Below the pieces are notes generated by a model that was not told the origin of the DNA, searched no databases, and saw only the letters and a list, made by a program, of their open reading frames with translations. Below are positions 10,915-14,763 of a DNA stretch of 64,000 bases, in pieces. The stretch is from Trueperaceae bacterium (GTDB lineage: Bacteria > Deinococcota > Deinococci > Deinococcales > Trueperaceae), in the NCBI GenBank assembly GCA_034520945.1, contig JAXHNB010000005.1, forward strand, positions 576,001 through 640,000, in the 5' to 3' direction. Positions within the stretch are counted from its first letter, which is position 1. Every line of letters begins with the position of its first letter. A program made the position numbers and the translations under genes.

Positions 10915-11597
10915 CCCACCTGCCCGCCCCCCAGGGAGAGGGCGGCCGCAATCACCCGGAACGGGTGGCCGGATAACCCCGGAATCACCGGCCGGAATCA
11001 ACCGGAAACGGCGGCCGAATAGCGTGGAATAGCCACAAGGCACCGAACGAGGCACCCTGCAAGCCAACCCGCCCGCCAGCGGCGACGCGTACCTCCAGCT
11101 TCACGGCACCCGCATGGCGCGCGCCCTCAGCGAAGCGTACCTCCAAGACGGCCTGCTCTCCTTCACCGAACTGCAGTGGATCTTCCTCGCCAGCCACGCC
11201 AGCGTCTCCCGCGCCATCGACCATTACCAACGCACGCACCACGTCATCCTGCCCTGCCCCGGCACCGTCCTCGACATGGGCCGCATGCTCACCCACAAGG
11301 ACCTCATCATCAAACTCCATCTACAAGGCCACACCGTCCTCGAGATCAGCGACCGCACCCACCACAACCCCCGCAGCATCGACGCCTACCTCAAAACGTT
11401 CGACGCCGTCCTCATCCTCAAGACCTACCACCTCCCCACCCCCCTCATCGCCACCGTCCTCGGCCACGGCCAAGAACTCATCCACGAATACCTCGACATC
11501 ATCGACGCCTACCTCAAACCCACCCACGCCATCCGCGAACACCTCCAACAACGAGGCGTCACCATCCCCACTCAAACACCACATGCCGGTTGACACA

Positions 11598-11638
11598 GCA
11601 AGGTCCACACCGGCGATCCGTCCGTTATCCTGGGACAC
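11598..11638 (-). pseudogene. N-terminal stub of a second IS110 transposase
   Basis: RBS GAAAGGAG followed by MSQDNGRIAGVDLA, which resembles the first DEDD motif. It stops at the DUF1670 module right end. Confidence 0.55.
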
Positions 11639-11778
11639 GGTCGCTCTCCTTTCTGGGTCACGAGCCCGTCAGTTACAGATGGGATGTAGAGGCCGCCCTC
11701 CGCCTGACGCAGTCACCCGTCGCGGGGCTGCTCTACCCTGTGGTGACGGGCTGGGTTGGCCCGGAAGGGAGGACGGCC

Positions 11779-12855
11779 ATGATCCAGGATACGTCTTCGG
11801 TTTCGCCTTGCATCGCAGGGGTCGACATTGGGGACGACACCTCCAGCGTGTGCATCTTGGATGCGGCATCGGGAGACGTGCTGGAGGAAACCCGCGTTCG
11901 GACGCGCGTGGCGGACGTGGAGCGGTACTTCGCGCGGTTGGACCCATTGCGTGTCGCCATTGAGACCGGGACGCACTCGTCGTGGATCGCGCGCGCCATC
12001 AGCGACGCGGGGCAAGACGTCACGATCGCCAACGCCGCGCACGTCCGGTTGATTCACGGCAGCAAACGCAAGAACGACCGGCTGGACGCCGAGAAACTCG
12101 GGCGCCTCCTCCGGTACGACCGGGCGTTGCTCGCGCCCATCACGCACCGGGGTCGCGCCGCGCAACTGGACCTTTCCGTTCTCCGTGCACGGGACGCGCT
12201 GGTCAGGGCGCGCACGCTCCTGATCAACCACGTGCGCGGGGTGGTGAAGTCCTACGGGCAGCGCATCCCCAAGTGCGAGACGAGCGCGTTCTCCAAGCAC
12301 GCCGCCTCGCACGTTCCCCCGGACCTGCTGCCCGCCCTGCAACCGCAGATCGAGGCGATCGCGCACCTCACAGAGCAGATCCGCAGCGCCGATCGGCGCG
12401 TAGCGGAGCTGTGCCGCACGACCCACCCCGAGACGGCCGTCCTGACGCAAGTACACGGCGTGGCCGAAACCACCGCCTTGACGTACGTCCTCACTCTCGA
12501 AGACCCCAACAGGTTCCACCGCAGTCGCGACGTCGGCGCGTACCTCGGTCTCACACCCGGCCAACGACAATCCGGCGGCAGGGATCCCGATAGGCACATC
12601 ACCAAGGCCGGCGATCGTGCGCTACGCAGGCTGCTGATTCAGTGCGCCCAACGCATCCTCGGCAAGCGCGGCATCGACAGTGACCTCAAGCGGCACGGGC
12701 AACGCATCATGCAACCCGGCACCAAGGAGGCGAAACGACGTGCCGTGGTCGCCGTCGCCCGCAAGCTCGCCATCCTCCTGCATCGACTCTGGATCACCGG
12801 CGAGGTGTACGAACCGCTCCACAACAACCAACCGAAACCGACCCCCTTGACGTGA
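11779..12855 (+). CDS. IS110 recombinase/transposase
   Basis: GVDIG, IETG, KNDRLDAEKL, YLGLTPGQRQSG, ITKAGD, AVARKL. Confidence 0.95.
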   Translation: MIQDTSSVSPCIAGVDIGDDTSSVCILDAASGDVLEETRVRTRVADVERYFARLDPLRVAIETGTHSSWIARAISDAGQDVTIANAAHVRLIHGSKRKNDRLDAEKLGRLLRYDRALLAPITHRGRAAQLDLSVLRARDALVRARTLLINHVRGVVKSYGQRIPKCETSAFSKHAASHVPPDLLPALQPQIEAIAHLTEQIRSADRRVAELCRTTHPETAVLTQVHGVAETTALTYVLTLEDPNRFHRSRDVGAYLGLTPGQRQSGGRDPDRHITKAGDRALRRLLIQCAQRILGKRGIDSDLKRHGQRIMQPGTKEAKRRAVVAVARKLAILLHRLWITGEVYEPLHNNQPKPTPLT

Positions 12856-12922
12856 GTTGAGTTCGCGCTCGGCGCGCGGCACGGACGAGGATCGCACCTG
12901 GGGCGTGCCCACCTTCCGGGAC

Positions 12923-13050
12923 GGGTGACTGCGACGGCTGGCTCTGGCTCTACGAAGCCGCTTTACAGAGTGCAGCACCCAACTTGGATGTACCCCACCC
13001 TGCACCGAGCCGACCTACCGGCTCACCACGAGTGCGCATGGAAGAACAAG
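12923..13050 (+). ncRNA. Predicted bridge/seek RNA with target- and donor-binding loops
   Basis: Stem GGGTGACTGC/GCAGCACCC. Loop strands GCTGGCTCT and TTACAG match the insertion flanks, and CATGGAAGA matches the predicted circle junction. Confidence 0.75.
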
Positions 13051-13448
13051 GCAAGGGCACCCCCGCATCAAGGCGCGCACCCCGCCCGCCACCGCCAGGC
13101 GCGACCGGCCCGTCAAGAACTACAAACCGCACCCAAGCAAACGCGGCGAAAACCACACCCCCGCGTCGGCGCCAACCTACGTTGACACGAAGCGGCCTCA
13201 ACATGGAAGAGTGCAGCACCCAACTTGGGTGTACCCCACCCTGCACCGAGCCGACCTACCGGCTCACCACGAGTGCGCATGGAAGAACAAGGCAAGGGGA
13301 CCCCGCATCGAGGCGCGAACCCCCGCCCCCACCGCCAGGCGCGACCGGCCCGTCAAGAACTACAAACCGCACCCAAGCAAACGCGGCGAAAACCACACCC
13401 CCCGCGTCGACGCCGCCCTACGTTGACACGAAGCGGCCTCAACATGGA
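12967..13448 (+). repeat. Tandem 241-bp imperfect duplication (12967-13207, 13208-13448)
   Basis: Direct alignment by eye shows several substitutions and small indels between the copies. Confidence 0.95.
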
Positions 13449-13475
13449 AGAGCCAGCGGGGCGCGGTCCCGCCCT

Positions 13476-14763
13476 GCGATTGGTGTCGATGGTTCCGCTA
13501 TTGGTCGCGGCGATCCTTCGCCCCGGTTGGTGGCAGCCCTACGTGAGTTTGGGACTGGGACTCACCCTCGGGTTCGTCGTGTTCACGATCTCACTGGCGG
13601 GACAGGTGTTGGCGGTGATCGCACTCGCTGGCCTAACCACGCTGCACGCGATTCGCAACCGCAACGCGTTGATCCAGCACGTCAAGGCCGTCGCGGTCCG
13701 CGCGTCGGTTCTTGTCGCGCTGGTAGCGGTGGGATTCACATTCGCGCTGCAACTCGTCGAGCCGGAGGCCATTCAGGTCCTCGGCGGGGGCGTCAACCTA
13801 ACGGACGTTCGCGAGCCGGAGGAGGAGGACCTGACGAAGGACAACCTGCGCCAAACGTTCAGGGAGCGCGGGGTGTGGATCGCGGACGCGCTCCGTCGCG
13901 GTGCAGAGCGCTTTCCGGTCGGGACGGGCGCTGGCAGCACGCGGCACATCTTCTCGTCGATCCAGTCCCACCCTGGCGTCGAGTCCGTCGACGTCCACAA
14001 CTACTACGTGCAGACGTTCATGACGCTGGGGCCCATCGGCGCGCTTGCACTGGTCTGGTGGTTGTTCGGTGCGGTTCACCTTGCATTCCTGCGTGGGCGT
14101 GTTGCGCTCGGCGTCGCAGGTGTCCTGTTCGCGATTCACCTCGGCTTCGACGTTGCCGGCTACTTCCCGGGCGTGATGATGAGCTTCATGCTTCTTGCTG
14201 GTGCGGGGGCCGCGACGGAGAAGCGGGCGTTTGCGCTCCCCAATGGGAGTGCTCCCGCGCACCGCATGCTCGGACTCGTCGCGTTGGTGGCGGTGTTCGC
14301 GTTCGTGGCGTACTGGGCGGTGTGGTCGCTTCCTTGCCAGGAACTCGATTGTGCCCTTGGGCGCCGCCTGGCGGAGCGAACCACGGTATCGGACGTCATG
14401 GCGCGTTCGACCGAGGCAGATCGGCTGCGCCTGGCCGCAGGGGCGGCACGCCTGAATCCCGATTCGTTGGCGGAGCGCCGTCGATTCGTCCATGAACTCG
14501 AGACCACGGTGTGGCGTTCCGGCGTGGATCCGTTGCCCGTGCTGCGCGAGCATGAGCGCTTGGTCGATGACTTTCGCGTGGCGGATCCCTACATCTACTG
14601 GGATTGGATCGAAGCGGCGACGCGCGCGGGAGATCGCGAAATGGCGTGCGAAGCTCGCCTTCGAGGATGGCAGGTGTTCGGCTTTCGCGGTTCGCACGTC
14701 CTTGCGCCGTCAGAGCGCTCTGCCGATGCGATGCAGGAGCCCGTGACGGTGCACTGTCGGTGA
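13476..14763 (+). pseudogene. O-antigen ligase / pilin O-oligosaccharyltransferase-like membrane protein, probably 5'-truncated
   Basis: Many TM segments and a Wzy_C-like motif GTGAGS..DVHNYYVQTFMTLGPIG. The upstream part of the ORF is IS sequence. Confidence 0.65.

Follow-up and report, generated by a model that had tools for sequence, protein, structure and literature searches.

Bridge and seek RNAs of IS110-family insertion sequences have been described in several settings that bear on the locus analysed here. Siddiquee et al. (2024; PMC11187229) reported the seekRNA elements ISEc11, ISPa11, ISKpn4 and ISPst6 of the IS1111 family, and Durrant et al. (2024; PMC11208160; structures 8WT6 and others) the bridge RNA of IS621, in which either loop uses its 5' strand to pair over 8-9 nt with one strand of the DNA and its 3' strand to pair over 4-7 nt with the opposite one, the 2-nt core being included in both stretches. 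The latter work also already predicts such an RNA for 93.0% of the IS1111 elements in ISfinder. More recent are the account of ISPpu9 and MITEPpu9 of Pseudomonas putida (Pares-Guillen et al. 2025; PMC12288879) and the report by Xie et al. (bioRxiv 10.64898/2026.08.31.748434), with in vitro and editing data, that IS621 recombines at sites matching half of its bridge RNA. We analysed a stretch of 64,000 nt from a Trueperaceae bacterium (GCA_034520945.1, contig JAXHNB010000005.1, forward strand, 576,001-640,000; hereafter the window, whose own numbering is used throughout). By anatomy and homology, positions 11679-13450 make up an insertion sequence that is intact and ordinary of its kind and belongs to the IS1111 group (IS110 family), and we put at about 0.88 the probability that it encodes an IS1111-type bridge-RNA system with the target GCTGGCT-CT-GTAA. 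As such the system falls within the kind described in 2024, and the picture drawn then is unchanged by it.

As far as the published descriptions go, the element resembles ISEc11, ISPa11, ISKpn4 and ISPst6 in its DEDD transposase with a GL-P----SG motif, its subterminal inverted repeats, its long downstream non-coding region and the lack of a target duplication. As in the IS1111 seekRNAs (PMC11187229), two short RNA stretches match both target strands with an overlap, and the match to the top strand comes 5' of that to the bottom strand. It differs from those elements, which are compared here by description, in its host clade and in its protein, which at 358 aa is slightly longer than the 330-350 aa quoted for IS1111 transposases in the same source. 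With IS621 it shares a target loop and a donor loop of the pairing geometry given above, and a 7-2-4 target layout, the CT core of IS621 being AG on the sense strand of the window element. Unlike IS621, with its RNA upstream of the gene in the left end, the window element would carry its own in the right end; its subterminal repeats are 13 nt long against 2-3 in IS621, handshake-type extra matches are not consistent in its family, and its protein is only weakly similar (E 3.3e-07 to IS621 and 7e-07 to ISCro4, both recombinases of solved structure).

A two-loop module downstream of the gene for the transposase

The putative bridge/seek RNA module, about 140 nt long, sits in the 3' non-coding region of the element (Table 1). 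Its first loop is a hairpin in which GGGTG(A)CTGC (12923-12932) pairs with GCAGCACCC (12972-12980), a stem present in the minimum-free-energy folds. The 5' guide of this target loop (LTG-like; LTG below) is GCTGGCTCT, the exact reverse complement, at 9/9 positions, of the right flank taken with the core, AGAGCCAGC (13449-13457). In the 3' guide (RTG-like; RTG below), TTACAG (12963-12968) is found again in the left flank (11673-11678), at 6/6 positions. The pattern GCTGGCTCT-N10-40-TTACAG occurs once in the window and in 0/100 dinucleotide shuffles. Read together, the two guides give the 13-bp sequence 5'-GCTGGCT-CT-GTAA-3' on the minus strand (target DNA GTTACAGAGCCAGC).

The second loop provides a corresponding pair of candidate donor guides. 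CATGGAAGA occupies 13037-13045, and the CATGGAAG within it, the 3' guide of the donor loop (RDG-like; RDG below), equals the tip of the right end (RE) with its core. The 5' guide of this loop (LDG-like; LDG below) is, in the family, the complement of positions 2-7 of the left end (LE), and in the window it agrees with the LE at 5/7 positions. An earlier, sequence-only reading of this DNA had proposed the hairpin at 12923-12980 with its internal loop, the match of its guides to the element's own insertion site, the match of the second loop to a circle junction and the target given above. Its motif positions proved exact throughout (12937-12945, 13449-13457, 12963-12968, 11673-11678 and 13037-13045), the stem pairs and covaries in relatives, CATGGAAG is indeed RE tip plus core and tracks the RE in relatives, and the target is supported by the anatomy, a second copy and the relatives; the LDG half of the donor loop was absent from that account.

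Table 1. Features of the element and its flanks (window coordinates)
Feature	Position	Strand	Remarks
Left flank, TTAC + core AG	11673..11678	+	right-target half if the target is written with a CT core
LE, tip ATGGG then subterminal inverted repeat ATGTAGAGGCCGC	11679..11696	+	repeat 11684-11696
Transposase/recombinase, 358 aa, DEDD	11779..12855	+	Pfam PF01548 + PF02371
Putative target-binding loop hairpin	12923..12980	+	outer stem 12923-12932/12972-12980, inner hairpin 12946-12959
Candidate 5' target guide (LTG-like), GCTGGCTCT	12937..12945	+	reverse complement of core AG + right flank AGCCAGC
Candidate 3' target guide (RTG-like), TTACAG(A)	12963..12969	+	equals left flank + core + first LE base
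Candidate 5' donor guide (LDG-like), ACCCCAC	12992..12998	+	opposite LE ATGGGAT, 5/7; position 2 is C opposite A
Donor-loop stem TGCAC/GTGCG	13001..13036	+	encloses hairpin GAGCCG...CGGCTC
Candidate 3' donor guide (RDG-like), CATGGAAG	13037..13044	+	equals RE tip + core, 8/8
First RE	13182..13209	+	TTGACA 13182-13187, repeat GCGGCCTCAACAT 13192-13204, GGA, core AG 13208-13209
Second 241-bp unit	13210..13450	+	5% diverged copy; own donor loop, TTGACA 13423-13428, repeat 13433-13445, core AG 13449-13450
Right flank AGCCAGC	13451..13457	+	left-target half

The ends and the gene are those expected of the IS1111 group. The subterminal inverted repeats, ATGTAGAGGCCGC and GCGGCCTCAACAT, are 13 nt long and set in from the tips by 5 nt (LE) and 3 nt (RE), in keeping with the 7-17 bp and the offset of a few bases that characterise the group, and they are also kept in relatives; the LE repeat matches the reverse complement of 13192-13204 and that of 13433-13445 at 12/13 positions each. 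Across the family the LE reads ATGGG-ATGAGAAGGCCG. Only 100 nt of non-coding sequence precede the transposase gene (11679-11778) compared with 354 nt between the gene and the first RE (12856-13209), the short-upstream, long-downstream arrangement of IS1111 elements. The protein carries both domains by which the IS110 family is recognised, the RuvC-like DEDD domain at the N-terminus (PF01548, E 4.6e-17) and the C-terminal one with its catalytic Ser-Gly (PF02371, E 4.8e-19). Among 37 homologues, D16, E62, D100, D103, S265 and G266 are invariant, as are G257, L258 and P260, which with S265 and G266 make up the GL-P----S/TG motif of the IS1111 group; the stretch GLTPGQRQSG aligns with GLTPRRYESG of IS621. 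Of 8000 candidates scored in a protein search, 7113 matched at E up to 1e-30, with identities of 70-75% for the nearest. Plasmid-borne relatives are distant, at best <=33.5% identical, with the named ones (ISShdy1, IS5708 and IS1618) at 27-30%; placing the element by name through them was rejected for that reason.

Taken with the described systems, these features suggest the following mechanism. A non-coding RNA of about 140 nt, transcribed from 12917-13060 downstream of the gene, would serve as partner of the DEDD recombinase. In the first loop, GCUGGCUCU would pair with the plus strand of the right flank and core, and UUACAG with the minus strand of the left flank and core, so that both target guides would jointly specify the 13-bp GCTGGCT-CT-GTAA of the minus strand. 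In the second, ACCCCAC and CAUGGAAG would likewise take one strand each, pairing with the LE half and the RE half, respectively, of a circle junction, CATGGA-AG-ATGGGAT, and strand exchange at the common AG/CT core would lead to insertion without target duplication. Transcription, binding of the RNA by the protein, the circular intermediate and programmability are steps that we infer by analogy. A promoter may be assembled across the circle junction, where TTGACA, an 18-nt spacer and GAAGAT span the RE-core-LE joint, the last matching a -10 box at only 3/6 positions; TTGACA stands 19-20 nt from the RE tip in 44/72 relatives and 18 nt from it in one more.

The second copy and the relatives

The source genome (G000; 10 contigs, 3.47 Mb) holds a second full copy (G000:C6:419253-420785, locus L002), which uses the first right end and stops at the first CATGGAAG, equivalent to window position 13209; by this copy the canonical element is about 1532 bp long. 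The two copies are identical over 1532 bp save one C in a C-run. This run, 5 versus 6 long (window 13157, about 2980 in L002), is their sole difference, and both lengths occur in contigs of runs X1 and X2. The flanks of the second copy read ...GTTACAG|ATGGG on the left and CATGGAAG|AACCTGCGGG on the right (right flank AACCTGC). Its RTG matches at TTAC plus the core, as in the window, and its LTG at 7/9 positions (5/7 plus the core), compared with 7/7 plus the core in the window copy; the site is closely related to that of the window copy. It forms one arm of a long palindrome, the mirror arm of which is uninterrupted and reads GTTACAGAACCTGCGGG (C6:419211-419227, minus strand), with a single AG. 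Set against this arm, the occupied site, GTTAC-AG-[IS]-AG-AACCTGC, shows that the element comprises ATGGG to CATGGA plus one AG and that it inserted at the core dinucleotide with no duplication of the target, as is typical of IS110 elements. The target is not an abundant genomic repeat: a search with GTTACAGANCCNGCGGG at <=2 mismatches gave 6 hits as against 19 for a reversed control, and its only exact match is the mirror arm on C6.

Traces of the element also occur on contig C8. A 19-nt LE stub identical to the left end (G000:C8:134926-134944; L177:1427-1445) is preceded by TTTTACAG, so that an RTG-matching left flank is seen three times in the genome. The stub lies between an IS256/Mutator-type transposase gene (L177:74-1357, minus strand) and unrelated sequence, with the left arm of a palindrome like that of the C6 target nearby (C8:133516-133559), and looks like an old insertion that was broken up afterwards. 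An RE-like stub with the tip CATAGA-AG (G000:C8:147349-147399; L177:13850-13900; L003) is 78% identical over 51 nt and has a subterminal repeat perfectly complementary to the LE repeat; it shares the orientation of the LE stub and stands 12.46 kb downstream of it. The interval holds PIN/DUF6364, PARG-like and Fic genes as well as a sugar operon (ROK-ABC transporter-NAGidase-SIS-BadF). The two stubs may delimit a single mobilisable unit or be remnants with no connection to each other.

For a comparison of guides with flanks, we used 160 relative loci (80 on genome contigs, 80 on metagenome contigs; 44-64% protein identity), found by means of a 37-sequence alignment; a search with the single protein as query found none. 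Named relatives come from Rubrobacter/Actinomycetota, Acidobacteriota and a few other metagenome-assembled genomes. Their common ends are AG|ATGGG-ATGAGAAGGCCG ... CGGCCTTCTCATGGA-AG|, and the downstream module is kept in both halves: the first runs from GGGTGACTGCG through a variable 5' strand with CT at its end, a hairpin that varies and a 3' strand, variable again, with AG at its end, to GCAGCACCC; the second has GACCCCA.C or a similar stretch, followed by TGCAC, a hairpin, GTGCG and xATGGAAG. In 165 downstream regions the first anchor of the module was found in 119, the last in 141 and both in 105. Motif rules fully parsed 72/166 items, 71 of them unique, and the guide statistics cover these only; parsing failed for lack of an LE motif (41), an anchor (32), an RE (10), an RDG (6) or GCAGC (1), or at a contig edge (4).

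In line with a target loop whose two guides match opposite strands and overlap at the core, the guides of the relatives follow their own flanks. Of the seven LTG positions outside the core, 5.49 on average match the right flank of the element itself and 3.91 the flanks of other elements; at least 6/7 match in 34/71 cognate cases (7/7 in 18, 6/7 in 16) compared with 315/4944 non-cognate pairs. For six RTG positions the means are 4.46 for own and 3.25 for other flanks, the commonest contiguous match between RTG and left flank being 7 nt (26/72). With LTG and RTG combined, at least 10/13 positions agree in 45/71 cognate as against 343/4970 non-cognate pairs.

The donor guides likewise vary with the ends. 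The RDG tracks the RE tip (variants ATGGAAG, ATAGAAG, ATGGCAG and ATAGAAA): xATAGAAG is found in 6/6 CATAGAAG elements, AATGGCAG in the one CATGGCAG element (1/1) and xATGGAAG in 63/64 CATGGAAG elements, while the RDG of the CATAGAAA group is AATAGAAA or TATAGAAA. LDG variants follow the LE, as in the pairs ACTTCAA/ATGAAAT, ACACCAA/ATGGTAT and ATCTCAT/ATGAGAT; since the LE varies little, this half of the comparison is the weaker one, and the two halves together still fit a donor loop. In most members the second LDG base is C (or A; alignment A3, columns 110-117), which cannot pair with the A of LE position 6 that it faces, and the fully complementary ATCTCAT or ATCCCAT are confined to a Rubrobacter-type subgroup. 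Handshake-type extra matches, looked for between the two bases after the RDG core and the right flank, showed no consistent agreement in relatives.

The stems, too, are conserved with compensatory changes in 37 aligned diverse sequences, which are related to one another and from which the structure itself was derived. Three helices are paired in register in 91.4% of cells as compared with 22-49% when one partner is slid, and the covariation score of 0.251 against 0.109 was reached by 0/500 shuffles, with both sides changing in 8/20 pairs. The outer target-loop stem is paired in 98.2% and has two pairs with 22 and 13 double changes; the donor-loop stem is paired in 96.8%, with changes on both sides in all 6 inner-hairpin pairs. 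Across homologues, then, the check that the sequence-only reading had named comes out in its favour, with guides following flanks in 71 relatives and stems covarying in 37 sequences.

Contrary evidence and alternative readings

Several results weigh against the IS1111-type reading. The fold energy of the module is no better than that of shuffles (z -1.23 and -0.41), so that support for the structure comes from covariation in the relatives. Rfam 15, searched over 11000-14000 at E up to 1, gave no match, it being not established that Rfam 15 holds a model for such an RNA, and a sigma-70 promoter scan of the linear element returned 0 sites. The 7/9 LTG match of the second copy implies that recognition tolerates, or once had, mismatches; the LDG pairs with the LE at only 5/7 positions; and in L011, the closest relative among the fetched loci (64%), the LTG matches at only 6/9 positions, yet 10 nt agree around the RTG. 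The 94/166 unparsed items stand outside the guide statistics, the relatives are not independent, and the non-cognate pairs contain many elements with similar targets. Copies at unrelated sites had been named beforehand as telling against guided insertion: the second copy sits at a related site, and one relative, L006 (57% identity; G036:C96, element about 840-2120), has flanks that match neither of its own target guides. Rearrangement of the copy or insertion off target may account for L006.

Foremost among the alternatives is that the system has been read correctly but is an inactive relic, its guides recording a past insertion while the RNA or the recombinase no longer works. The aberrant, duplicated right end of the window copy may be a sign of decay, full copies number only two in 3.47 Mb next to the LE and RE stubs on C8, and the linear form yielded no promoter in the scan above. 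Against this, the open reading frame 11779-12855 is intact and keeps every invariant catalytic residue, each copy has its two ends and its two loops intact, and the near-identity of the copies over 1532 bp, save one homopolymer base, argues for recent movement. We consider a relic unlikely.

Less probable again, and improbable in our view, is that the matching stretches act as DNA, either as a folded single-stranded right end that pairs with the target, as in IS200/IS605-type elements, or as protein-binding sites. The guides do lie inside the right end of the element, where RNA and DNA are indistinguishable by their letters. In ISEc11, ISPa11, ISKpn4 and ISPst6, however, RNA from the same position is described as co-purifying with the transposase and as needed in trans (PMC11187229), and the G-U pairs of the stems fit RNA better (UG in 34/37 at alignment columns 121/163, and 7 UG at columns 10/89).

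High-G+C sequence does yield many short matches, and IS110-family ends are, according to PMC11187229, frequently mis-set in databases, but the idea that the guide-flank matches are due to chance, or that the supposed flank is part of the element, is rejected as very improbable given the shuffles (0/100), the different right flank of the second copy, the uninterrupted target arm on C6 and the advantage of cognate over non-cognate flanks in 71 relatives.

The duplicated right end and possible self-targeting

The right end of the window copy is tandemly duplicated over 241 bp (units 12969-13209 and 13210-13450; 95% matches by TRF, mean column identity 97% by MAFFT). The sequence-only reading had claimed a span of 11670-13460, which does hold the element but includes this duplication without mention, and it had called the system complete: the parts are present, but with an extra, 5% diverged copy of the right end. 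Unit 2 is real in run X1, a contig of which is exact over the unit-specific stretch 13380-13440, and its divergence suggests descent from an older or variant copy.

Unit 1 starts right after the RTG core AG (TTAC-AG|AGTGCAGC), and unit 2 right after the AG core of the first RE, at the junction CATGGA-AG|AGTGCAGC (13203-13217). Both borders lie at AG cores. The novel junction therefore connects the tip of the RE with what follows the core of the RTG, and it is the product expected from insertion into, or exchange with, TTAC-AG-AGTGCAGC. AGAG occurs only four times in the element, and the observed pair is one of 3930 identical-4-mer pairs spaced 50-500 nt; a random microhomology event hitting both cores thus appears unlikely. 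A contig of run X3, from another study, passes from 12921-12962 directly to 11673 onward (...GCCGCTTTACAG|ATGGGATG), which is the reciprocal junction (RTG|LE). This is a single contig at a depth of 13.4, whose shorter side has 42 nt, with 7 letters shared; it was matched at 90% likeness and belongs to a related element that differs at 6 of 328 nt.

These junctions raise the possibility, to which we would give somewhat short of an even chance, that the RTG-coding DNA (TTACAGAGTGCAGC: TTAC-AG followed by AGTGCAGC, where the true target has AGCCAGC) is a built-in half-target recombined with the ends of the insertion sequence by its own recombinase, both junctions being reciprocal products of self-insertion. 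The duplication itself may have arisen by any of three routes, namely nested insertion followed by homologous deletion, a solo-RE deletion followed by re-insertion, or unequal sister exchange. Among the relatives no RE|post-RTG junction was found, bar a single motif hit, in L140, which disagrees with that locus's own RTG.

As described for ISPpu9 (PMC12288879), the window element has an AG crossover, insertion into palindromic repeats and, downstream, a module with a second right end at its border, and this module is tandemly duplicated, in ISPpu9 in some strains. The extra module of ISPpu9, however, carries LE-like and RE-like boxes of its own and circularises, whereas the left border of the repeated unit in the window is not LE-like but a core inside RTG-coding DNA. 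As in the half-match recombination of IS621 reported by Xie et al., CATGGA-AG|AGTGCAGC would need an RDG match on one side and the RTG-matched TTAC-AG on the partner site; unlike in that work, the half-match idea comes here from two natural junctions only.

The left flank (11594-11678) was considered as a remnant of an older target loop, and this was rejected since its local alignment score was reached by 225/500 shuffles. Left of the insertion lie an IstB-like ATPase fragment (PF01695, 10154-10675) and an open reading frame with a C-terminal DUF1670 (11114-11593), both probably leftovers of other mobile elements. To the right, a gene with a Wzy_C (O-antigen ligase-like) domain (13480-14763) starts a few tens of bases from the element.

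The window offers an IS1111-type bridge RNA that can be read cleanly, from a high-G+C clade of soil and salt environments that has been little studied, with target, donor and both guide pairs assigned, and its roughly 70 relatives with different targets are a source of new programmable recombinases and help to define the guide positions in the loops. The tentative side observation of self-targeting is modestly novel, and a recombination junction exactly at guide-coding DNA is possibly new. If real, the guide-DNA junction would be a natural case of self-targeting and half-site recombination, relevant to off-target design rules. If the self-targeting idea is true, half-match recombination of this kind would yield, in nature, right ends that are nested or in tandem as well as solo modules of the donor loop, and any bridge-RNA expression cassette would be predicted to be an off-target of its own recombinase.

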